A stretch of DNA of 64,000 nt from Candidatus Nomurabacteria bacterium (GTDB lineage: Bacteria > Patescibacteriota > Saccharimonadia > Saccharimonadales > CAIOMD01): the NCBI GenBank assembly GCA_020631975.1, contig JACKGO010000008.1, positions 72,446 through 136,445 of the forward strand, in the 5' to 3' direction. The position numbers and the translations under genes were made by a program. Numbering within the stretch: the first letter of the stretch is position 1; every line of letters starts with the position of its first letter. Shown here in pieces: positions 7,206-19,633 of this stretch. A model generated the notes under the pieces. The model ran no database searches. It had not been told where the DNA came from and worked only from the letters and a program-made list of their open reading frames with translations.

Positions 7206-7295
7206 GGAGAGGTGCAAGAGTGGTTGAATTGGCTTGTCTCGAAAACAAGTGAGCCAGCAATGGTTCCGAGGGTTCGAATCCCTCCCTCTCCGCCA
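7206..7295 (+). tRNA. tRNA-Ser (anticodon CGA), CCA encoded
   Basis: Hand-folded: acceptor GGAGAGG/CCTCTCC, anticodon arm CTTGT-CTCGAAA-ACAAG, long variable arm, T-arm GAGGG-TTCGAAT-CCCTC. Confidence 0.9.
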
Positions 7296-7353
7296 ATTTG
7301 TGAGCCCCGCTTTTATGCGGGGTTTTCAAATTGCTGTGAAAAGTGCATTCGAA
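7281..7353. repeat. tRNA-Ser 3' end plus downstream flank; an inverted homolog lies at 14986-15059
   Basis: The 26-nt block aaattgctgtgaaaagtgcattcgaa (7328-7353) is identical to the reverse complement of 14986-15011. The hairpin and the tRNA 3' end are also similar. Confidence 0.7.
7303..7327 (+). terminator. intrinsic terminator after tRNA-Ser(CGA)
   Basis: ccccgc (7305-7310) pairs with gcgggg (7317-7322), followed by tttt. Confidence 0.6.
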
Positions 7354-7540
7354 CCCGATAGGGTGAAAACTGCCAGTGGCAGTTTGCAAGGCCGGAAACC
7401 CTACGCACGAATGTGCCAGAGTTGAGGCGGGGCCGAAACCGATTGCCAATTGATTGGCAGTAGGATTGTGGCCGAATCCCCCTTTACCAACAGATAAGTG
7501 AAGCAATATAAAAAGCCCTAGACAAACTAGGGGTTTTTAC
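7350..7540 (+). other. structured intergenic segment with its own terminator; possible small RNA of unknown class
   Basis: Local hairpins (aaactgcc/ggcagttt, tgcca/tggca). Ends in the bidirectional terminator ccctag-acaaa-ctaggg plus ttttt (7515-7538). No credible ORF. Confidence 0.2.
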
Positions 7541-7541
7541 A

Positions 7542-7618
7542 TGGTACACCCGGCGCGATTCGAACGCACGACCTCCTGTACCGCAAACAGACGCTCTATC
7601 CAGCTGAGCTACGGGTGC
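7542..7618 (-). tRNA. tRNA-Arg (anticodon GCG), CCA encoded
   Basis: Hand-folded reverse complement: GCACCCG acceptor, D-arm GCTC-AGCTGGATA-GAGC, anticodon loop TTGCGGT, T-arm GTGCG-TTCGAAT-CGCGC. Confidence 0.9.
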
Positions 7619-8549: not shown

Positions 8550-8576
8550 AAAATATACCCCAGACAAGCTGGGGCT
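8550..8576 (-). terminator. orphaned terminator, inferred to be the native terminator of tRNA-Ser(UGA) before element insertion
   Basis: ccccag (8558-8563) pairs with ctgggg (8569-8574), T-rich on the minus strand. Lies immediately outside the left att core at 8584. Confidence 0.5.
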
Positions 8577-8583
8577 CATTTTA

Positions 8584-8729
8584 TGGCGCAGTTTTACAAC
8601 CGAGCTAGAACCCATTTTGGCGCAAATGCCTGACGCACTGGCCGAAAACCCCAAAAAACTCCTCGCCTGATTTTCTGAAAGATTTCCCCCGCCGAATTTT
8701 GGAAATTGAGAGGAGTTTTTGGGGTTTTA
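8584..8729. repeat. arm A (146 bp), perfect inverted repeat of 9928-10073
   Basis: Base-by-base reverse-complement match read by eye. Contains an internal ~19-bp stem (aaaaccccaaaaaactcctc / gaggagtttttggggtttt). Confidence 0.9.
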
Positions 8730-8754
8730 GACGCTCTACTATGACAACCGGTCA

Positions 8755-8783
8755 TTGACATAAGAGCAATAATGTGCTAGTAT
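8755..8783 (+). promoter_or_regulatory. sigma70-like promoter for the Fic gene
   Basis: TTGACA (8755-8760), 17-nt spacer, TAGTAT (8778-8783), with TGc extended -10. About 50 nt upstream of the ATG. Confidence 0.5.
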
Positions 8784-8835
8784 CTTAAGCAGTCTAACTA
8801 TAAAATAAAAATACAAGAAAATCGAAAGCTAAACC

Positions 8836-9918
8836 ATGTCGAACGAGATAGTTTCCCATAAAGACAACCGCGCAGAAGATATTACAGAGTTTTTCAACTC
8901 CCAAGAGCAACTCAAAGACTCTACACAGCGTCGTGATTACTTTGAGCACCTAGATGAAAACGAGTTCCTTGATCTTGTCCAACAAACTGCGGGACTTGTA
9001 CGAACTGGTAAGGTAGAAAACCAGCATTTTGATGGCGAAACGGTCGGGTTAATGACGCATGAAGTGCCCGACCAGCGGGAAAAAGAGCAACTTTTGCGCG
9101 ATACATGGACAGTAGCAAAAGAGTTTTTGAGTGATGCCGAAATTCCCGATGAAGATGCACTGGATTATGCTGCACTTACGGTTGCTGGTGGCTTACTGTA
9201 TGCACACCCATTTATGGATGGCAACGGTCGCACTAGTCGAACACTCTCGTACATGATTGCTCGTGGTAACGGTGATAAGCAGGAGTTGCACGACATACTT
9301 GCCGAAACTGGCGGTGGCCGTAACTGGCAAGTCGCACCAGTGCCTCTAGTGACGAGCGGTCAGTCGGTGTTTGAGGGCAAGCAACCGAAATCGATTGAAT
9401 GGGAAGATACATTTGTTGGCGAGGCAGAAGATGCGCTCGGTGGTGCTATTGCCAACAGTAGATATAAAGACGCGATTATTAGAAAGTTTATCGAAAAATA
9501 CGGTGAGTTAGCCGGAGAGCAGATTAAAGGAAGTTCGTTACAGCATGAAGATGGAACTTCTACGCTAAATGGTGAAGAGTTTATTGCCAAACTTGTTAAC
9601 GATCCAGAGGCGGGCATGACAAATGCGGATGAATTGATGAAGTTACATCGTGAAGCCCGCGCCGATTATGTTCACCGGTTTCTTAAAGCAATGCAGCTGA
9701 AAGAAAAGACACAGCTTCGTAGAATCCGCCAAGGAGATTTTGAGATAACCGACCAAGATGATGAATTCCAGAGAGGGCGTAAGCAAACAATCATTAAAGA
9801 GTTTGGAAAGCGTTCCGTTAATGGATTGTTGACACCTGCCGAGCAGCAACTCGTACAGCACCGTTCGTACTCACGAATACGTCATGGGAAAGAACGGGAC
9901 GAAGATATCGCCGCTTAA
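8836..9918 (+). CDS. Fic (filamentation induced by cAMP) domain protein
   Basis: Canonical Fic motif HPFMDGNGRTSR (HxFx[DE]GNGRxxR), 360 aa. Confidence 0.9.
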   Translation: MSNEIVSHKDNRAEDITEFFNSQEQLKDSTQRRDYFEHLDENEFLDLVQQTAGLVRTGKVENQHFDGETVGLMTHEVPDQREKEQLLRDTWTVAKEFLSDAEIPDEDALDYAALTVAGGLLYAHPFMDGNGRTSRTLSYMIARGNGDKQELHDILAETGGGRNWQVAPVPLVTSGQSVFEGKQPKSIEWEDTFVGEAEDALGGAIANSRYKDAIIRKFIEKYGELAGEQIKGSSLQHEDGTSTLNGEEFIAKLVNDPEAGMTNADELMKLHREARADYVHRFLKAMQLKEKTQLRRIRQGDFEITDQDDEFQRGRKQTIIKEFGKRSVNGLLTPAEQQLVQHRSYSRIRHGKERDEDIAA

Positions 9919-9927
9919 CGGCGATGA

Positions 9928-10073
9928 TAAAACCCCAAAAACTCCTCTCAATTTCCAAAATTCGGCGGGGGAAATCTTTCAGAAAATCAGGCGAGGAGTT
10001 TTTTGGGGTTTTCGGCCAGTGCGTCAGGCATTTGCGCCAAAATGGGTTCTAGCTCGGTTGTAAAACTGCGCCA
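9928..10073. repeat. arm A' (146 bp), inverted partner of 8584-8729; also acts as a large hairpin after the Fic stop codon
   Basis: Perfect reverse complement of arm A. Shares the cgcca core (10069-10073) with arm B. Confidence 0.9.
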
Positions 10074-10203
10074 CAAGCAAACTTTTTTGGAAATTGCCGT
10101 CCGCATGGGCGGCTTTTTCTTTGGCTGCGCGGAGCGCCAGCCAGATGTTTTCAGGGGGGAAGTGGGAGCTGGGGCGCGGCTGGAGCCGCGCTTTTTTGGT
10201 TGT
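10069..10203. repeat. arm B (135 bp), perfect inverted repeat of 11757-11891
   Basis: Base-by-base reverse-complement match. Contains a terminator-like gcgcggct-gg-agccgcgc followed by tttttt. Confidence 0.9.
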
Positions 10204-10355
10204 CCGCCATAGGCGGATTTCTGGTAAAATAAGAGTGGACACAAGTTAATTTTCGGAAATTCCGTTTTTTGTAGGCTTTAATAGCCGTCTCGTACAATCT
10301 GGGATTTCCTAGCTTGTGTCCAGCGAGGCGGCTATTTAAGTTCTAGGGGGTAGCG

Positions 10356-12023
10356 ATGGCTGAAAAATATTTCATTTATGCTCGCAAGAGTACCGATGTC
10401 GAGGACAAACAAGTTTTGTCTATCGAGGCACAGATAGCGGAGTTGAAAAAGTACGCCAAAGATAACCAACTAACAGTAGTAGACACTGTTATCGAAAAGA
10501 AGTCCGCCAAAGTGCCGGGACGCCTCAAGTTTGGCGCAATGCTTACTCGAATTGAAGCTGGTGAAGCCAGTGGAGTTATCTCGTGGCACCCTGACCGATT
10601 GGCAAGAAATAGTATAGACGGCGGACAGATTGTCTATCTGCTCGACCAAACGCACCTGCAATCGCTCAAGTTTCCGACATTTTGGTTTGAAAATACCAGT
10701 CAGGGTAAGTTTATGCTGTCTATTGCGTTTGGTCAGAGCAAATACTACATCGACAACCTCGCGGAGAATACGAAGCGTGGTTTGCGCCAGAAAGTACGGC
10801 GGGGCGAGTTTCCGGGGCTTGCGCCTGTTGGGTATATCAACGACGTGCGCATACATACGATTATTACTGACAAACGCCGCGCCCCAATCATCGCGCAAGC
10901 CTTTGAGTTGTATGCTCTCGGCGGTAGCCGCCTGCAAGATATTGCCAAATTTCTGGCAGATAAGGGTGTGAAAACGAGGAGCGGCAAGCACCTCACAAAA
11001 GATATGGTGAAGAAAATACTGACCAATCCTATCTACTACGGACATTTTAAGTATGCTGGCGAGGTACATGAGGGCAAACATACGCCGATTATTAGCAAGA
11101 AGCTGTTTGACTATGTACAGGCGACGCTAGAACGACGCGGACACAAGCGCAAGGGCGCGAACGCGCCCCAAGCCTTGTGCGGCTTGTTGACTTGCGGCGG
11201 GTGCAATATGGCGATTACTGCCGAGAAAAAGATAAAATACCAGAAAAACGGCAATGTACATGAGTATATTTACTACCGTTGTTCAAGGAAACATAAAACG
11301 ATTGCTTGCAAAGAGCCGACCATAACCGAACCCGACCTTGTCGCACAGCTTGCCGACATCTTGCAGGACTACGCCCTGCCGAAGTCGTGGGCGGTAGAGC
11401 TAGAAACAATGCTCGCAGAAGACGAGAAGAAAGCAGAACAAAGTTCTGCGGTGTTTATCACTGACACACAAAACAAGATACAGAGCTTGCAGAGCAAGCT
11501 CCAGCGACTACTCGACAGCTACCTAGACCAAGATATTGACCAACATGCGTACCGTGCCAAGCAAGCCGAGTTGATGAGCCAAAAGAAGTCGCTGGAAGAA
11601 CAAACCAGCAAGCTGACGCTTGCCGCCAATAGTTGGGTTGAACCTATGCGACAGTGGCTCAAAACGGCGATTTCTCTCTGTGAAATCGCAAAATGTGCCG
11701 AGCCAGCGGCAATGAAACAGGCTTTTAGCGAAATTGACGGATTGAACCTGTTTTTAACAACCAAAAAAGCGCGGCTCCAGCCGCGCCCCAGCTCCCACTT
11801 CCCCCCTGAAAACATCTGGCTGGCGCTCCGCGCAGCCAAAGAAAAAGCCGCCCATGCGGACGGCAATTTCCAAAAAAGTTTGCTTGTGGCGGAGAGAGTG
11901 GGATTCGAACCCACGGTACCGTTGCCGGCACGCATGTTTTCAAGACATGTTCCTTCAACCACTCGGACATCTCTCCATACAGGTAGTAAGTATACCAAAT
12001 GTGATGTTGTTGCTAAAGCATAA
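10356..12023 (+). CDS. large serine recombinase (resolvase domain, recombinase domain, zinc ribbon, coiled coil)
   Basis: N-terminal YARKSTD...SIEAQ and HPDRLARN. Zinc ribbon CGLLTCGGC...YYRCSRK. The last ~90 aa are encoded by arm B' and then the antisense of tRNA-Ser. Confidence 0.9.
   Translation: MAEKYFIYARKSTDVEDKQVLSIEAQIAELKKYAKDNQLTVVDTVIEKKSAKVPGRLKFGAMLTRIEAGEASGVISWHPDRLARNSIDGGQIVYLLDQTHLQSLKFPTFWFENTSQGKFMLSIAFGQSKYYIDNLAENTKRGLRQKVRRGEFPGLAPVGYINDVRIHTIITDKRRAPIIAQAFELYALGGSRLQDIAKFLADKGVKTRSGKHLTKDMVKKILTNPIYYGHFKYAGEVHEGKHTPIISKKLFDYVQATLERRGHKRKGANAPQALCGLLTCGGCNMAITAEKKIKYQKNGNVHEYIYYRCSRKHKTIACKEPTITEPDLVAQLADILQDYALPKSWAVELETMLAEDEKKAEQSSAVFITDTQNKIQSLQSKLQRLLDSYLDQDIDQHAYRAKQAELMSQKKSLEEQTSKLTLAANSWVEPMRQWLKTAISLCEIAKCAEPAAMKQAFSEIDGLNLFLTTKKARLQPRPSSHFPPENIWLALRAAKEKAAHADGNFQKSLLVAERVGFEPTVPLPARMFSRHVPSTTRTSLHTGSKYTKCDVVAKA
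11757..11891. repeat. arm B' (135 bp), inverted partner of 10069-10203
   Basis: Perfect reverse complement of arm B. Its last 5 nt are the CGCCA 3' end of tRNA-Ser(UGA). Lies inside the recombinase ORF. Confidence 0.9.
11887..11976 (-). tRNA. tRNA-Ser (anticodon TGA), copy 1, CCA encoded
   Basis: Hand-folded: acceptor GGAGAGA/TCTCTCC perfect, anticodon loop CTTGAAA, T-arm GTGGG-TTCGAAT-CCCAC. Confidence 0.85.
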
Positions 12024-12111: not shown

Positions 12112-12963
12112 TTAGAGATTTAGATTAAGCATGTCTTCACATAAAACAATTACCGCTTTTTTGTTTACGGGTTCTTTTGTATAGCCAAGCTGAGTACCAA
12201 CTTCTTGTGACATCCTATCGAATATATCAACCATACTAAGTGTTGCTTGCCATATTTCTTTTTTTTCACTAGTTGCGCTAATACTATTTATCTCATTTGC
12301 AAAATCAATATCCATAAGCTTTTCTAAATTTCTGCCGTGAACGCCATAGTTAATGCTCCAGTTGTTACTAAGACCCACATACCATGAAAGCATTCTCTCG
12401 AATGATTCATATCGTATAGCGCTTAATAGCATATACCTAGCAAAGGCCGTTTCTCCACGACGCAAGCTTTTTGCTATATAGGGTAAATCCCAATAAAAGC
12501 CATCTACAGTTTCATAAAATTCCCTCTCAGTTGGTTTGGTAACTATGTATTTTTTTAAAGTAGGGTGTACTATTTTGGATTCTATATTATCTTTATCTAT
12601 AATTATCTTGTATCCGTTATTATAGTCTGTGCTATCAAAGTGCTGATTATCAATAATTTGAAAGTCAACCCTAGGAAAGTCTTTAAAAACAACCAGCCTG
12701 GTAAGACTACCCGGAGCAAAGCCAGCATTTCTTGGCATGAGTGGCCACTTTACTAATGTTTGTCCAAAATAGTCTAACCAGTCATCGCTGTTAAATAAAT
12801 GTAAATCTTTTACGATTAATTCTACGTCATAATCTGATAGCTTATCTGGTTTTGAGCTTTTACTGACTCGAGAGCTAGTCAATATCATTGCTCTTACATT
12901 ATCGTTTTGAGTGCCCCAGCGTTCTAACTTTGAAAGTACATCTTGTTCATTGGTTTCAAACAT
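12112..12963 (-). CDS. ant(6): aminoglycoside 6-nucleotidyltransferase, ANT(6)/AadK-type (streptomycin adenylyltransferase family)
   Basis: 283 aa, collinear from memory with B. subtilis AadK. Examples: SDYDVELIVKD...DDWLDYFG versus QDYDISYFVTD...DQWLEIFG, and PTEREF...YIAKSLRRGE versus PTAREF...YVVKGLARNE. Confidence 0.8.
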   Translation of the reverse strand: MFETNEQDVLSKLERWGTQNDNVRAMILTSSRVSKSSKPDKLSDYDVELIVKDLHLFNSDDWLDYFGQTLVKWPLMPRNAGFAPGSLTRLVVFKDFPRVDFQIIDNQHFDSTDYNNGYKIIIDKDNIESKIVHPTLKKYIVTKPTEREFYETVDGFYWDLPYIAKSLRRGETAFARYMLLSAIRYESFERMLSWYVGLSNNWSINYGVHGRNLEKLMDIDFANEINSISATSEKKEIWQATLSMVDIFDRMSQEVGTQLGYTKEPVNKKAVIVLCEDMLNLNL

Positions 12964-13148
12964 GATTCTAGTATAATTTATAACTTACAATTATAGATAT
13001 TTTTGTTTTTAGAATAAGAAAGAGAAAGAGGCATGAACGCACGATGCTAGACTGGCTTTTCTATTCCAACATCTAACTAAAGTTTTGTTCAAATCAGATA
13101 GCTTTGACAGAATTCTAAACACTCTGCTCGGGTTTTAACCTAATTATT

Positions 13149-13206
13149 ACAGCAATTTAAAAACCCCGCAAATACGGGGATCTTAAATTGGCGGAGGAGG
13201 AGGGAT
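13149..13206. repeat. 58-bp direct repeat (tRNA-Ser 3' end plus hairpin flank), partner at 15002-15059
   Basis: acagcaatttaaaaaccccgcaaat...attggcggaggaggagggat. About 5 mismatches between the copies by eye. Confidence 0.8.
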
Positions 13207-13278
13207 TCGAACCCTCGGTACCGTTGCCGGCACGACGGTTTTCAAGACCGTTTCCTTCAACCACTCGGACACCTCTCC
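13189..13278 (-). tRNA. tRNA-Ser (anticodon TGA), copy 2, chimeric acceptor stem
   Basis: 5' strand GGAGAGG but 3' strand CTCCTCC, identical to the 3' end of tRNA-Ser(GCT). This gives an A5:C68 mismatch and a G6:U67 wobble. Confidence 0.75.
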
Positions 13279-13332
13279 GTACAACAAGATAGTATAGCAA
13301 AAAACTACACAAACACTAAAAAGCGTAAAATC

Positions 13333-14262
13333 TCACCCCAAATGCGACTTTTCCGTAACTTTCGCTAGTTCCAGTGTAGCAGTCTCCGGATTATCTTTAT
13401 AATATTGCTTGAATTGAGCTGGGGTCATCATGTCAGGTAACCCCATATGCCATCTACGGTTAATGTAGTGTTTGGTAAATCTGTTGGCTCGTTCCTGTAG
13501 TTCTGCGATGTCTTTTTGTTGGTATTCGCCCCTTGGGAAGCATTCGCTTCTGAGAGATTTGTTGAAGTTTTCAATATGGCTTTGTTCGTTCTTCTTGTAC
13601 GGACGGCTATAACGATGCTCACTGACAGCCTCAACAGCCTCTCGGAAGGTTGTTTGGAACTCGGAGCCGTTATCCGACTGGTGCAATACTGTACGCCCGT
13701 AGAAGGCGTTGTGGATGGCAAAAGCCCCGGCTCCGGTGTTCATCTCTAGGTTAGTACCAATTACTACACTTGGTTCCTTCGTGAATATGTCTATGGCTGT
13801 ATATGCATAGACACCGCCACCCAGGTCTACTGTGTCGTGTTCGATTACTTCTCTTGGGGCAGAAGCTGCCACGAGAGCTTTATGTTTCTTGTAGCGCCGT
13901 ACGCCAACAGCCGCCTTGGTGAAACGTCTGTGAAGATAACGGTAGATAGTGGATAAAGCCAGGCTAATGCCATGGTTTTCTTTGAGTTCTTTACGTATCT
14001 TAGCGCCACACCAGCCAAACTCATTTCTAATGTCTACTATCTTTTGGATGGTGGTTTCTGGTATTTGAGCTTTGGGGCGACGGTGCTTGGCGGTGGTCTT
14101 GCGCTTCAGAAACAACCGGATGCCGATCTGTTTGATCTTTCTTAGCCAACGGTAGACAGTAGCCCTATCGCGGGATACTACCTGAGCTATTTGGTTGATG
14201 GTAGATTCAGCTTGGTACATATTCCATGCTGTTTCGTAGATTGTTAGTGTACGCTTAGTCAT
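13333..14262 (-). mobile_element. IS481-family-like DDE transposase gene (309 aa); IS ends not identified
   Basis: N-terminal HTH (ATVYRWLRK). rve-type core with D (HDTVDLG), D (HQSDNGSEF) and E (SHIENFNKSLRSE). Fills the ~1.05-kb gap next to the tRNA 5' end. Confidence 0.75.
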
Positions 14263-14333
14263 AGCGACACTCCTTTCTTGATGTTTAGTTTGATACCTAA
14301 ACGAAAGTATACGGAGTGTTGCTACCTTTTAGC

Positions 14334-14804
14334 TTACTTTTGTCGCATTTTTAGTGGGAATTTTCCGAAAGGGGCAGTAGCTGGATTGCTGCATTCATAG
14401 ACAGCTTGTATGGCCGGCGTTGAAGGGTTAGCGTATGCAACAAAAAAATCTAATGTACAGTACGTATTGGCAACCTGCTTATAAGCATAGGCATCTGGAT
14501 ACCAATCTTTTCCAGATAGCACATCTTTAAACCATTGCTTAACTTGTAGCTCTTGGTCTTCGCGCTGTGTCCAACCCTGAAACTGTAACTGTGAACTAAG
14601 CTTGTCTGCAACATCTACAGCAGTGTCTTTTTTTACTTGGGTATCAAATGGCATATACGCCTTGTTGGTAACGACACAAGAATAATTACTTGCTTCACTA
14701 CATACAGTAGTTGATTCTATGTTTTCAAAGCCTAGTAGGGCGAGTGGCTTTCCAAGGGCGTTATATTCGCGTGTAAATGTTTTTTGGGTATTATGTTTTA
14801 CCAT
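14334..14804 (-). CDS. hypothetical protein (156 aa)
   Basis: Uninterrupted ORF with no recognisable motif. Confidence 0.5.
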   Translation of the reverse strand: MVKHNTQKTFTREYNALGKPLALLGFENIESTTVCSEASNYSCVVTNKAYMPFDTQVKKDTAVDVADKLSSQLQFQGWTQREDQELQVKQWFKDVLSGKDWYPDAYAYKQVANTYCTLDFFVAYANPSTPAIQAVYECSNPATAPFGKFPLKMRQK

Positions 14805-14912: not shown

Positions 14913-15001
14913 ATCAGTATTATATATGTTTTCTTACCACAATAATGTAAAACCCCACACATATTAAGATTCTTATGTAGTCGGTTTCGAATGCACTTTT
15001 C

Positions 15002-15059
15002 ACAGCAATTTAAAAACCCCGCAAATGCAGGGATTTTATATTGGCGGAGGAGGAGGGAT
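15002..15059. repeat. displaced tRNA-Ser 3' fragment (15042-15059) plus flank; direct partner of 13149-13206
   Basis: tggcggaggaggagggat matches the 3' 18 nt of the tRNA-Ser genes at 13189 and 15215, then diverges (gctttcag). Confidence 0.8.
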
Positions 15060-16746: not shown

Positions 16747-17166
16747 CTAGGATGCTGTGTTGGCAACGTTGCCAAGTACAAACTTCACAATAACCTGCGC
16801 AAGCGCCACGATGATAAGACCTACTATTGCGTACAATATGGTGTTCTTTGCAGAAGTAACGCTACCGGCATCACCACCGCTGGTAATGTAGCGGAAACCG
16901 CCATAGATAATCATGATGACAGAAACAACACCAACAACCCAAGAAAAGATATTAATGATGAGGTTTACCGTATCATTAACACCTTCTGATGCTTCGTCAT
17001 TGATATTTGTACAGTCGCCAGCAGTGTTAGGTGCTTGCAAGTTTGCGCCACCACACAGGCCACTTTGAATATCACTTTGAGCAATTGCTATAGCAGGAAC
17101 GGTCAATGGAGCGAGCATACCTACAGCTGTGAATGCCGCTATTATTAATGTTTTTAGTCTGTTCAT
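16747..17166 (-). CDS. VirB2/TrbC-like T4SS pilin paralog 1 (139 aa)
   Basis: Signal peptide, variable Cys-containing region, conserved core IINIFSWVVGVVSVIMIIYGGFRYITSGGDAGSVTSAKNTILYAIVGLII (TM-loop-TM). Confidence 0.75.
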   Translation of the reverse strand: MNRLKTLIIAAFTAVGMLAPLTVPAIAIAQSDIQSGLCGGANLQAPNTAGDCTNINDEASEGVNDTVNLIINIFSWVVGVVSVIMIIYGGFRYITSGGDAGSVTSAKNTILYAIVGLIIVALAQVIVKFVLGNVANTAS

Positions 17167-17250
17167 GTAAATTCCTTATTTAACGTTAGCTTATGATACT
17201 TTTTTACCATATATTAATGTTTTTGTAAATATATAATCGTTCGTTCACTA

Positions 17251-17457
17251 TTTAGGTTACATTACCAAGCACAAAAAGCACAAGTACTTGCGCGAGTGCG
17301 GCGATTACCAAACCAACCAGTGCATAGACAATGGTATTTTTGGCGCTTGTTACTTTACCAGCATCACCCCCGCTAGTGATATACCGAAAACCACCAAATA
17401 TGACCATAATGACCGATACCACACCAACGATCCATGAAAAGATGTTGATGATGTCTT
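17251..17457. repeat. ~207-bp direct repeat (3' halves of pilin genes 2 and 3), partner at 17645-17851
   Basis: Near-identical by eye, with about 4 substitutions. Offset 394 bp. Confidence 0.85.
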
Positions 17458-17623
17458 CTACCAGAGTGTTAACTTTTGCTGGTGCGCTGCCCGCACATTG
17501 GTCACCGGTACATGTAGCTTCGACACCTTTTTTTATCTGTGCATAGCTCGTAGTAGTTGTAAGTACAGGGCCTACGAAAGCAAATGTTGCGAGTGCTGCT
17601 AGGCCTATTAAAAACGCTTTCAT
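17252..17623 (-). CDS. VirB2/TrbC-like T4SS pilin paralog 2 (123 aa)
   Basis: Same architecture. C-terminal 68 aa identical to paralog 3. Confidence 0.75.
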   Translation of the reverse strand: MKAFLIGLAALATFAFVGPVLTTTTSYAQIKKGVEATCTGDQCAGSAPAKVNTLVEDIINIFSWIVGVVSVIMVIFGGFRYITSGGDAGKVTSAKNTIVYALVGLVIAALAQVLVLFVLGNVT

Positions 17624-17644
17624 TTTTTTACTCCTTTATTTATC

Positions 17645-17851
17645 TTTAGGTTACATTACCAAGCACAAAAAGCACAAGTACTTGCGCGAGTGCCGCGATT
17701 ACCAAACCAACTAGTGCATAGACAATGGTATTTTTGGCACTGGTTACTTTACCAGCATCACCCCCGCTAGTGATATACCGAAAACCACCAAATATGACCA
17801 TAATGACCGATACCACACCAACGATCCATGAAAAGATGTTGATGATGTCTT
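17645..17851. repeat. ~207-bp direct repeat, partner of 17251-17457
   Basis: See partner entry. Confidence 0.85.
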
Positions 17852-18044
17852 GCACGAGGTTGTTTGCTTTTGCCTTAACACCTATTTTATTGCCCTCGCT
17901 GTCGTACTGCTGGCAGTTACCATCCGGACACGTAGCATTGATGCCATCTGTTACTGGGCTAGCGTATATGGGTAAACTCAATGCTGGCAGGGCAGCGGCA
18001 CTTAGTCCAAACACTGCTACGATTACTAAAAAGAGTTTTTTCAT
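17646..18044 (-). CDS. VirB2/TrbC-like T4SS pilin paralog 3 (132 aa)
   Basis: Same architecture. Variable region carries CPDGNC. Confidence 0.75.
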   Translation of the reverse strand: MKKLFLVIVAVFGLSAAALPALSLPIYASPVTDGINATCPDGNCQQYDSEGNKIGVKAKANNLVQDIINIFSWIVGVVSVIMVIFGGFRYITSGGDAGKVTSAKNTIVYALVGLVIAALAQVLVLFVLGNVT

Positions 18045-18057
18045 TTTATATCCTTTA

Positions 18058-18459
18058 TTAGTTTAATAACTTTGCTATTGCAAATAATATCAACCGATTT
18101 GCTAATACAACAACCACTAACCCAACAAGTGAGTACAATATAGTCTGCCGCCCAGTTGCTGCCTTTTGCGGTTCACCAGCGCTGGTAATGTACTTAAAAC
18201 CACCAAATATAACCATAAAAACTGCAAGCGCACCTGCTACAAAAGATAATATATTAATTATTCTCTTAATAAGAATTAGTATTGCGTTATCGCCCGGGTC
18301 GGCGTCACTACCTTTATCGTAGCCTTTACATAGTGAACTGGTTGGGTTGTTTTTGCACACTTCGGTTAAATCTTCTGTTGCGCTCGCAGCCATCGCTAAA
18401 GGACTTATGGTCAAAAAAAGTAGTGCTGTGGCGAATAAAGATGTCAAAAACATTTTCAT
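18058..18459 (-). CDS. VirB2/TrbC-like T4SS pilin paralog 4 (133 aa)
   Basis: Signal peptide, CKNNPTSSLC, core INILSFVAGALAVFMVIFGGFKYITSAGEPQKAATGRQTILYSLVGLVV. Confidence 0.7.
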   Translation of the reverse strand: MKMFLTSLFATALLFLTISPLAMAASATEDLTEVCKNNPTSSLCKGYDKGSDADPGDNAILILIKRIINILSFVAGALAVFMVIFGGFKYITSAGEPQKAATGRQTILYSLVGLVVVVLANRLILFAIAKLLN

Positions 18460-18468
18460 ATGTATGTG

Positions 18469-18747
18469 CTACGTCACCCTATTAAATATAAACAGAACAA
18501 TGACTTGGGCAAAAAATATTACAACCAACCCCGCTACGGCATATATAATCGCACGGCGAGCTTGGGCAACCTTTTCTGAATTACCCTGCGAAATAATCAG
18601 TTGTATACCAGAATAGACAACCATAATGACGGCAACTGCTCCAAAAATAGCGAGAACGTAATTTAAAATCGTGCCAAAACTATTTGTGTTTGTTTTTGGT
18701 AAATAATCAGAACTAATTATTGCTGAAAATGTGTATAAAATATTCAT
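18469..18747 (-). CDS. VirB2/TrbC-like T4SS pilin paralog 5 (92 aa, short N-terminus)
   Basis: Core LNYVLAIFGAVAVIMVVYSGIQLIISQGNSEKVAQARRAIIYAVAGLVV. No obvious long variable region. Confidence 0.65.
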   Translation of the reverse strand: MNILYTFSAIISSDYLPKTNTNSFGTILNYVLAIFGAVAVIMVVYSGIQLIISQGNSEKVAQARRAIIYAVAGLVVIFFAQVIVLFIFNRVT

Positions 18748-18749
18748 AT

Positions 18750-19259
18750 TTAGGCGAGTCCTCCGGCAATAAAGCCAACTATTTGCGACGCGATAACTGC
18801 AATTACCATACCTACCAAGGCATTAAACAGCGTTGTTCTGGCAGCGGCAATTTTTTGCGGTTCACCATCGCTCGTAAGTAATTTAAAACCGCCCCAAATA
18901 ATCATCACTACAGCAATAACGCCTGCTACATATAGAAGGATATCAAATATCCCCATAAGTATTAGAATAATGACTGTTCCACCTAGGCCATCTGTTTTAA
19001 TTTCACATTGCCCATTTACTTTTTGCCCCGGCAAGTACTGATACCAGGTTGGAAGAGGCAGACCTCCGCTACCTGGCCGGCATTTATTACCTTCTGCCTG
19101 TATGTTTGCTTCTGTTCCATCTGCTTGACGGGGGTTTTCTGGATTATCTGATTGCGCAACAACATGCACCGTAGACGGTACTATACCTAGCACAGCAATA
19201 CCCATACTTGGTACGAGTAATAGTGCTAGGCTTGTGAGAACTTTGGCAACGAGCTGCAT
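18750..19259 (-). CDS. VirB2/TrbC-like T4SS pilin paralog 6 (169 aa from Met at 19259)
   Basis: Start chosen at MQLVAKV (signal-like), overlapping the upstream stop (TAATG). Core FDILLYVAGVIAVVMIIWGGFKLLTSDGEPQKIAAARTTLFNALVGMVI. Confidence 0.7.
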   Translation of the reverse strand: MQLVAKVLTSLALLLVPSMGIAVLGIVPSTVHVVAQSDNPENPRQADGTEANIQAEGNKCRPGSGGLPLPTWYQYLPGQKVNGQCEIKTDGLGGTVIILILMGIFDILLYVAGVIAVVMIIWGGFKLLTSDGEPQKIAAARTTLFNALVGMVIAVIASQIVGFIAGGLA

Positions 19260-19633
19260 TAAAACACGCCCCCCGGTATTAACCACTGTATAAAGGCGTA
19301 CAAAAAGAAGTAGGCCACTAAACCAAATACAACGTTCCATATTTTTTCTTTAGCCGCTTGTACGTTTTGTGCGTTGTCTCTTGCTGTCATGTACTGTATG
19401 CCTGCCCACGCAATCATGACAGAACCACCAGCTAATATTGTTACAGAAAGCACATTAATAAAAAATTCTATCCATTTAATTATTGGGTTATCTTTAATGT
19501 CAGATGCAGTAGTTTGACCATTAGTTGGTGAAGGCTGTTTTAAGCCCTGCGCATAGGCAGCTTGTGTTGCAGGCATGGTAGTACCGCATAAACTTGCCGC
19601 TGCAATTGCTAAAATAAATAATGTTTTTTTCAT
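19259..19633 (-). CDS. VirB2/TrbC-like T4SS pilin paralog 7 (124 aa)
   Basis: Signal peptide, core FINVLSVTILAGGSVMIAWAGIQYMTARDNAQNVQAAKEKIWNVVFGLV. Confidence 0.65.
   Translation of the reverse strand: MKKTLFILAIAAASLCGTTMPATQAAYAQGLKQPSPTNGQTTASDIKDNPIIKWIEFFINVLSVTILAGGSVMIAWAGIQYMTARDNAQNVQAAKEKIWNVVFGLVAYFFLYAFIQWLIPGGVF

Follow-up and report, generated by a model that had tools for sequence, protein, structure and literature searches.

The concept of a phage or element attachment site (attP) placed inside an integrase gene is already known from Mx8 and from the archaeal SSV-type integrases. In Mx8 IntP/IntX, attP lies within the integrase coding sequence and integration at a tRNA-linked bacterial site (attB) gives the gene a new 3' end, which alters the properties of the enzyme and does not abolish them (PMC6070905). 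The 'suicidal' SSV-type integrases have the site inside their own gene, which is broken by integration, and they have been stated to be exclusive to archaea (PMC8371274). For mycobacteriophage BPs and its relatives, an integration-dependent immunity involving the phage attachment site has been described (PMC4557955), and in intragenic invertons a constant gene body is joined to alternative C-terminal ends across inverted repeats (PMC10028968). Here, a window of 64,000 nucleotides from a Candidatus Nomurabacteria bacterium (contig JACKGO010000008.1, positions 72,446 to 136,445), probably a Saccharibacteria genome, was analyzed. The window holds a 3.3-kb integrative element, at about 8584-11891, with a recombinase gene at its right end. 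The attP lies within the last codons of this gene, integration at the CCA end of a tRNA gene swaps the tail of the protein, and a spare attP in inverted orientation is carried in the element.

The recombinase open reading frame (ORF; 10356-12023, plus strand) encodes 555 residues, and its first stop is at 12021-12023. An initial annotation had proposed that the frame runs through the attachment arm and the antisense strand of the tRNA gene, and this was confirmed. By its domains and site logic, the enzyme is an ordinary large serine recombinase (LSR). Pfam matches were obtained for Resolvase (PF00239, residues 6-151, E 2e-21), Recombinase (PF07508, residues 175-261, E 9e-20) and Zn_ribbon_recom (PF13408, residues 274-330, E 3e-8). 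In 65 aligned sequences, R10-K11-S12-T13 of the resolvase catalytic domain, which includes the nucleophilic serine, is invariant, as are C275, C280, C283, C309 and C318 of the zinc ribbon. The C-terminal domain of the A118 integrase aligns to residues 203-426 (E 6e-9), and the coiled-coil insertion modeled by AlphaFold2 as helices 343-390 and 396-426, with a predicted local distance difference test score (pLDDT) of 75-91, matches the A118 coiled-coil region.

Two endings of this gene exist. Codons 468-512 sit in a repeat arm and core (11757-11891), the core alone (11887-11891) being codons 511-512 of the 526-codon native ORF, and codons 513-555 are formed by the antisense of the tRNA gene plus 47 nt past it. 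The window form (REC-t, 555 aa) and the native form (REC-c, 526 aa) have identical bodies and first differ at residue 513, with tails of 43 aa (ERVGFEP...VVAKA) and 14 aa (QFYNRARTHFGANA), respectively. GFEP in the former corresponds to GGA TTC GAA CCC, the antisense T-arm. The tail swap anticipated in the initial annotation stands, and the lengths given there, 18 and 49 aa, become 14 and 43 on recounting from residue 513. The alternative ending ...LLVAQFYNRARTHFGANA is encoded twice, at 10024-10068 on the minus strand and at 8589-8633 on the plus strand; the mirror ORF 10024..10242 on the minus strand, where this ending had been recognized, terminates as ...KSLLVAQFYNRARTHFGANA.

The C-terminus of the recombinase differs with integration state, as had been suggested, and both forms occur in public assemblies. 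A 526-aa protein (P0126) with a body identical to that of the window protein and ending in ...LLVAQFYNRARTHFGANA was found in three contigs, and the 555-aa form (P0122) was found on 14 contigs from independent samples. Since the same 555-aa protein occurs on all 14, no sequencing error is involved and the frame is not the product of a lost stop. An error in sequencing or assembly that deleted a stop at the end of the gene is already refuted by these contigs and by the homologs, all of which read through the arm; nothing was found in its favor, and its probability is practically nil.

The features of the element are collected in Table 1. Two inverted repeats organize it: I1 (8581-8729/9928-10076; 149 nt, 99%) encloses the Fic gene, and I2 (10066-10203/11757-11894; 138 nt, 99%) encloses the recombinase body. 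The two repeats meet at a 5-nt core, and inverted cores stand at their outer ends. Three sites result, namely L (c/TGGCG/a'), M (a/CGCCA/b, inverted) and R (b'/TGGCG/tRNA), the core at R being the antisense of the G-CCA 3' end of the tRNA plus one acceptor base. Flank c joined through TGGCG to the tRNA gives the same tRNA-terminator layout as that of the neighboring tRNA-Ser (13154-13217). Because this layout is restored by the join, L and R were assigned as attL and attR, the left and right junctions of an element measuring about 3.3 kb, and, judging from the sequence, flank c would directly follow tRNA-Ser(UGA) in the uninterrupted site. Site M is a second complete attP, inverted, between the cargo and the recombinase promoter; therefore, the recombinase body lies within near-perfect inverted repeats of about 135 bp and the cargo within others of about 150 bp. 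The last 14 codons and the stop of the native gene are now at attL (8589-8633), 3.3 kb from the gene body. The guanine-plus-cytosine (GC) content of the element is 0.47-0.50 versus 0.35-0.45 in the flanks. The minus strand of arm b' provides two intrinsic terminators that serve the tRNA gene (11864-11847 and 11789-11766), and arm b at site M has two terminator-like hairpins on the plus strand (10096-10113 and 10171-10194). No terminator-like site was found downstream of REC-t on its own strand.

Table 1. Coordinates of the integrative element and its tRNA target in the window.
Feature	Position	Strand	Remarks
Flank c, terminator hairpin	8557..8575	-	Terminator-like match; now 3.3 kb away from tRNA-Ser(UGA)
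Core copy L, TGGCG	8584..8588	+	Left junction, attL = c/a'; three-site alignment
Arm a' at attL	8589..8729	+	Tail codons (14) and stop at 8589-8633, then hairpin 8646-8664/8710-8728
Fic-domain cargo gene, 360 aa	8836..9918	+	PF02661, E 5.8e-8; inside the a'/a inverted repeat
Arm a at site M	9928..10068	-	10068..10024 encodes QFYNRARTHFGANA and stop; holds the T-arm mimic CTAGAACCC
Core copy M, CGCCA (reverse complement of TGGCG)	10069..10073	-	Three-site alignment
Arm b at site M	10074..10203	-	Inverted copy of codons 468-510
Palindrome TCCGCCATAGGCGGA	10203..10217	.	Inner edge of arm b
REC-t ORF	10356..12023	+	Pfam Resolvase, Recombinase, Zn_ribbon_recom
Arm b', 130 nt	11757..11886	+	Recombinase codons 468-510
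Core copy R, TGGCG	11887..11891	+	Right junction, attR = b'/tRNA
tRNA-Ser(UGA), integration target	11887..11976	-	ARAGORN; Rfam 59.3 bits
tRNA-derived tail of REC-t	11892..12023	+	43 codons and stop, ERVGFEPTVPLP...VVAKA

Some smaller elements were observed around site M. The halves of the palindrome TCCGCCATAGGCGGA each resemble the tRNA-Ser 3' end (TCCGCCA), and the palindrome is conserved at the DNA level in many Saccharibacteria loci, whichever the target tRNA, being read as 'nrlwr', 'tang' or 'ppmaa' depending on the frame. A candidate recombinase promoter (TTGTAG-18 nt-TACAAT) is located at 10269-10298, and the same hexamers recur in the divergent upstream region of a related locus, L167. 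It is enclosed by the short inverted repeat GTGGACAC (10235-10242)/GTGTCCAG (10316-10323), which could be an operator.

Relatives of the recombinase protein number in the thousands. The survey covered 160 loci, 80 from species-representative genomes and 80 from metagenomes, in Saccharibacteria, Moranbacteria, Nomurabacteria, Paceibacterota, Doudnabacteria and other Patescibacteria. The element family has hundreds of members, is widespread across Patescibacteria and shares the layout tRNA flank/a' - variable cargo - a/b - promoter and recombinase - b'/tRNA, where the inverted repeats formed by arm a (about 150 nt) and by arm b (about 135 nt) mostly have 98-100% identity. The recombinase ORF enters the antisense of a tRNA gene in 63 of the 80 genome loci and 49 of the 80 metagenome loci, most of the remainder running off the contig. 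Inverted repeats around the recombinase were found in 68 and 55 loci, respectively, with a median length of 135 nt. The repeated stretch is the last 110-185 nt before the tRNA junction, with the inverted copy mostly 58-226 nt upstream of the start, and the identity of the b repeats in the genome set is at least 98% in 52 loci and 100% in 36. The inverted partner of arm a was located 0.9-3.9 kb farther upstream in about 30 loci. In loci with all three sites present, these have only 3-7 nt in common, namely TGG, the discriminator and 1-2 nt more, which are the antisense of the tRNA CCA end.

The upstream copy of arm b, when read on in frame, leads to x[LF]Yxx[AV]RT[YH]F followed by 3-5 aa and a stop in 54 of 69 loci, and the other 15 are near-variants or are cut by contig ends. 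A small stand-alone gene at site M, corresponding to the 72-aa ORF 10024..10242, was considered and rejected, as neither a conserved start codon nor a Shine-Dalgarno sequence was found across 54 loci; the open stretch upstream of the repeat varies from none to 62 codons. The comparison of C-terminal ends that the initial annotation had called for gave no homolog ending near residue 465, since all of them are translated through the arm and then continue into antisense-tRNA sequence (0 to 124 codons) or into the conserved tail described above.

The target tRNAs of the family (loci L001-L166) comprise at least 16 isotypes. Four recombinases that fall into one 90% cluster (P0001, P0121, P0122 and P0124; at least 90% identical) have four different tRNA-derived tails, which, together with the number of isotypes, indicates fast target switching. 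This is consistent with the recognition of generic tRNA features. The cargo consists of 1-7 genes, unrelated among close relatives and with an orientation of about 50:50, such as GDSL lipase, EamA transporter, kinases, methyltransferases, alanine racemase, peptidase S58, LexA-methylase fusion, SDH protease, methylase with helicase, and Fic. No conserved accessory or directionality gene was found in 30 cargo regions, where almost all proteins were singletons in an all-against-all BLASTP and the Pfam matches were diverse. A phage origin was discarded, as the viral contig collection gave only two partial matches. The use of repeat divergence as a clock of insertion age was also abandoned, because L167 shows arm exchange between related elements. 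In the genome set, 27 of the 80 loci start at a contig end located 74-599 nt upstream of the recombinase start, and the upstream inverted attP, where it could be located, is usually within about 150 nt of that end. Elements of this family systematically break short-read Patescibacteria assemblies, leaving orphan contigs of 1.6-2 kb with the recombinase only.

The conserved tail is constrained both as protein and as DNA. At the protein level, 59 of 59 loci keep the frame of the recombinase open along b', versus 16 and 22 of 59 for the other two frames, and this frame is open across the b'-tail junction in all 54 loci compared. The alternative tail is always in frame, with the stop 3-5 codons past the motif in about 45 of 51 sequences, a position that is kept across subfamilies with unrelated nucleotide sequence there. 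In the extension, W488 and L491 are invariant and P483, N486, R492, E496 and K497 nearly so. The tail also has an excess of synonymous change (synonymous fraction of 0.33 versus 0.20 expected, z estimated at about 3.8), and no codon periodicity was found in the sequence past the tail stop (19 independent pairs). At the DNA level, the Arg codon of the tail is almost always [C/A]GA, and ART[YH]F corresponds to GCT CGA ACC TAT TTT, a mimic of the antisense T-arm. Counted from TGG, the motif [TA][CA]GAACC begins at nt 22 in arm a' and at nt 18 in the half-site formed by the tRNA, an offset of +4 that is found in 23 of 29 loci. For the A118/LI integrase, attB has the zinc-ribbon motif 5 bp nearer to the center than attP (PMC3783163). 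Since the offset matches this rule, a' was assigned as a P-type half-site and the tRNA as a B-type one.

These data have to be weighed against the main rival, a tolerated read-through in which the functional protein ends at about residue 476, the rest is translated DNA of the element end, both tails are equivalent and the motif is kept only as the P' half-site, with conservation wholly at the DNA level. The T-arm mimic at a fixed distance from the core agrees with it, and part of the tail conservation does come from selection on DNA, because the Arg codon and ART[YH]F coincide with the P' half-site. The conserved peptides KKARLQPRP and KEKAAHADG are terminator hairpins read antisense, and the ratio of nonsynonymous to synonymous change (pN/pS) was 0.49 for the tail and 0.68 for arm b' (19 independent pairs), which is weak constraint; the tail set for this test was, moreover, picked by a regular expression that fixes several residues, so the test is biased. 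The pN/pS of 0.5-0.7, the lack of a length constraint on the tRNA-side tails and the A118 homology, which ends ahead of the extension, likewise favor read-through. Against it stand the open frame of b' relative to its control frames, the constant junction frame with a stop at a kept distance in unrelated nucleotide sequences, the excess of synonymous changes and the invariant residues of the extension. Read-through is regarded as a less probable explanation.

Structure prediction bears on the same question. The zinc-ribbon fold ends with strands 465-474, and from about residue 476 an extension of about 50 aa continues beyond the canonical fold; the A118 homology had already stopped at residue 426. 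In the AlphaFold2 model of REC-c, helices were predicted at 487-500 and 509-525 with a pLDDT of 45-59, whereas residues 501-555 of REC-t form a coil without secondary structure (pLDDT 27-39). With regard to the order past residue 467 or so that the initial annotation had asked about, the native tail looks helical and the tRNA tail is predicted to be disordered, only with low confidence in both. The models were used for this helix-versus-coil comparison and were rejected as proof of tail function, as confidence is low past residue 476. The low scores for residues 477-526 (45-59) speak against a functional swap and in favor of read-through. As to a possible role as sensor or in directionality, the tail is located about 85 residues past the coiled coil.

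In attP, arm b' is the P side, the core is the antisense of the ...N-CCA end of the tRNA and arm a', with its 14 codons, stop and hairpin, is the P' side. Recombination with the 3' end of the tRNA gene parts a' from the recombinase, the frame continues into the antisense tRNA, and the native tail x[LF]Yxx[AV]RT[YH]Fxxxx gives way to a tail of arbitrary length dictated by the tRNA. For the swap as a functional event, the following mechanism is proposed. The free form would be a circle carrying two inverted attP regions, as follows from an attL x attR excision. REC-c, with the conserved tail, is probably the native and integration-competent enzyme, since its gene ends in a stop followed by a hairpin, and the frame of REC-t enters the tRNA in antisense without a terminator-like site. 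The tRNA-tailed REC-t, the form of about 95% of genomes, would be an altered and probably disabled enzyme that locks the insertion; the orientation bias and the disordered tail bear on altered activity only indirectly. The native gene could be rebuilt by a flip of its body, for which either RecA or an attP x attR reaction of the enzyme itself would be responsible. Inversion or gene conversion may maintain the near-perfect identity of the repeats. Expression of a flipped recombinase by read-through from the tRNA promoter was discarded, as arm b has two correctly oriented terminators in both states.

The orientation of the window (state A) is found in about 95% of the resolved loci, and it would prevail if REC-t is disabled and the opposite orientation (state B) is unstable. 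State B was observed in L083, where housekeeping genes and tRNA-Ser(CGA) on the plus strand are followed by b, promoter, recombinase and b' and then by the conserved tail. The contig of L083 was assembled by MEGAHIT and has k = 141 in its name; reasoning from the MEGAHIT k series, the join is considered read-supported because this k exceeds the repeat of 135 nt. Two other loci (L009 and L100) resemble it and stop within b'. In L167, the conserved-tail end runs into the inverted Fic gene and then into flank c, and in L175 the Fic segment is flipped. In addition, two tandem arrays of two elements each were found, L024 (= L094; 3636-10952) and L081 (1367-10250), where the a' arm of the neighbor supplies the conserved tail of the first recombinase, indicating that a hybrid site served as target. 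Assemblies therefore show two ways back to the native end, namely the opposite orientation, with the tRNA upstream on the same strand, and the tandem array. As a separate observation, cargo and recombinase modules alternate in the arrays, and the cores between them change orientation from one to the next; new combinations of recombinase and cargo would arise if excision took place between every other core, and this could explain the unrelated cargo of close relatives. MEGAHIT contig ends at site M were rejected as a sign of heterogeneity, since the repeat of 119 nt there equals the k = 119 step of the assembler.

Several observations weigh against flipping and the locked state. Short-read assemblies do not give a reliable orientation across perfect inverted repeats that exceed k, and the contigs with the opposite orientation (L083, L009, L100 and L167) are short-read assemblies of different samples. 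L167 is also a valid walk through a state-A graph with collapsed repeats, and a divergent variant makes up its upstream 290 nt. Among the 160 loci there was no circular contig, nor any terminal direct overlap in the 80 metagenome contigs; L097 is compatible with a circle, although the contig breaks off inside the repeats. Recombination of attP x attR is not carried out by canonical LSRs (PMC3783163). Finally, intact recombinase ORFs persist where the repeats have diverged to 77-92%, and the tRNA-tailed form could still be useful in such loci.

Part of these observations would fit a different role of site M, namely an operator for autoregulation combined with an insulator, made of a high-affinity binding site of the recombinase and two terminators some 150 nt ahead of the start; M would then not be a recombination substrate, with a gene that never flips and contigs of the other orientation that are misassembly walks. 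The position of M 58-226 nt upstream of the start in most loci, the two terminators that arm b places between cargo and recombinase promoter, the single orientation shared by most resolved loci and the ambiguous walk of L167 agree with such a role. An operator, however, needs about 50 bp and not 280 bp at 98-100% identity over both arms; L083 crosses the 135-nt repeat in a k = 141 assembly, the tandem arrays show hybrid sites used as targets, and cargo orientation is about 50:50. Site M as operator and insulator is judged unlikely.

A resident phase-variation switch of the Hin/Gin type, with a recombinase that flips only its own gene or the cargo and an incidental tRNA adjacency, would account for the two adjacent segments within inverted repeats and for the fact that, among contigs of one strain, the Fic and recombinase segments each occur in both orientations. 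Nevertheless, the junctions rebuild an intact tRNA and terminator target, the GC content sets the island apart from its flanks, close relatives have unrelated cargo and tandem arrays exist. The at least 16 isotypes, the four tRNA-derived tails of recombinases with at least 90% identity and the architecture of an LSR instead of a small invertase also disagree with a resident switch, which is considered very improbable. Overall, an integrative element with an intragenic attP, a tail swap, a spare inverted attP and a putative locking of the insertion is the best explanation and a fairly probable one. A further-reaching proposal is held with little confidence: the recombinase gene would be a memory of integration state, in which REC-c integrates and can act on attP x attR, integration or self-inversion produces an inactive REC-t, a rare flip through the twin inverted attP rebuilds REC-c and re-mobilizes the element, and C-terminal recoding replaces a directionality factor.

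Further observations concern the neighborhood of the element. A streptomycin/aminoglycoside adenylyltransferase gene (12112-12963, minus strand; PF04439, E 1.6e-58), in a stretch with a GC content of 0.35, lies between two tRNA-Ser(UGA) copies (11887-11976 and 13189-13278) that share 83% identity over 113 nt, and 87.5% over 96 nt by BLAST; this stretch looks like another segment acquired at the same hotspot. A direct repeat (13128-13206 and 14981-15059; 79 nt, 84%) made of a tRNA-Ser 3' end and terminator encloses about 1.85 kb and resembles what would be left of the att sites of one more island, beside tRNA-Ser(GCU). Since other samples of the strain yielded contigs that lack 13324-14367 (L170, L171 and L174), the region is polymorphic for an insertion or deletion. 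About six small paralogous genes at 16747-19633 on the minus strand are annotated as T4SS_pilin (PF18895) in the identical contig L171, and their array has an internal direct repeat of 229 nt (95%; 17251-17479 and 17645-17873). Upstream of the element, tRNA-Ser(CGA) (7206-7295, plus strand) and tRNA-Arg (7542-7618, minus strand) were found. The former and tRNA-Ser(UGA) are convergent, and the hairpin region that follows tRNA-Ser(CGA) at 7316-7358 shows 95% complementarity to 14981-15023. Since the tRNA-Ser cluster shares trailer sequences, the region offers several near-equivalent targets.

If the tail swap alters activity, it would be a new route to serine-integrase directionality without a separate factor, and the memory proposal, if true, would provide a bacterial serine counterpart of the 'suicidal' integrases thought to be restricted to archaea. 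Because the cargo moved by its hundreds of members varies greatly (Fic, methylases, helicases, transporters and metabolic enzymes), the family is a probable route of gene exchange in the reduced genomes of Patescibacteria. The recognition of generic tRNA features, CCA end and T-arm, through an attP that mimics the T-arm may interest integrase engineers. In addition, gene callers and assemblers will mis-annotate genes of this family, with fused tails and contigs broken at the repeats. No description of such elements, or of the layout of twin inverted attP, was found in the limited literature searched.

Compared with the systems described so far, the element shares with Mx8 IntP/IntX a crossover core within the recombinase ORF and a new 3' end made by integration. 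The enzyme is a serine recombinase and that of Mx8 a tyrosine one, and Mx8 is a phage without an inverted spare gene end, in contrast to the 3-kb cargo element described here, where the exchange is limited to 14 native residues. As in the SSV-type elements, integration leaves parts of the gene at opposite ends of the element. Those are archaeal tyrosine recombinases divided into large N- and C-terminal parts. The present enzyme is a serine recombinase of a bacterial host that loses no more than its C-terminal tail, of which the element retains a spare copy. In the BPs phages, Broussard et al. (2013) reportedly described an attP within a gene, such that integration changes the C-terminus of the protein and hence its behavior; there, the repressor gene is affected, the integrase is of the tyrosine type and no inverted duplicate exists, while here the recombinase itself is concerned.

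Inverted repeats that hold the crossover sites bracket segments here as in invertible-segment switches. Alternative C-terminal ends are switched by inversion in the Mu G segment and the R64 shufflon; in these and in the invertons the recombinase acts on another gene, whereas here the gene that would be recoded is the recombinase itself and one of the ends is the antisense of a host tRNA. Unlike the small serine invertases Hin and Gin, the enzyme is an LSR of 526-555 aa (an enhancer was not searched for). The yeast 2-micron plasmid is a circle split into two segments by two long inverted repeats with FLP/FRT sites, and the putative free circle of the element would be halved in a similar manner by twin inverted sites into recombinase and second segment. 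It differs in that the circle is unobserved here, there are no replication genes, the enzyme is a serine recombinase and the element integrates. The tycheposons of Prochlorococcus are also small cargo elements at tRNA genes, a minority of which use an LSR, although they occur in different hosts and neither intragenic attP nor twin inverted repeats have been reported for them.

Among serine integrases, resolvase, recombinase and zinc-ribbon domains with a coiled coil are shared with A118/LI, phiC31 and Bxb1, and the half-site motif is displaced between attP and attB, by 5 bp in LI and 4 bp here, which is roughly half a helical turn. In canonical LSRs, attP is intergenic and excision requires a separate directionality factor, whereas here attP is intragenic with an inverted duplicate, no conserved accessory gene was found in the 30 cargo regions, the protein has a C-terminal extension of about 50 aa and many tRNAs serve as targets through their generic CCA end and T-arm. 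The features that appear to be new are an LSR with an intragenic attP, the twin inverted attP around its gene, the half-site that mimics the T-arm and the spread across Patescibacteria.

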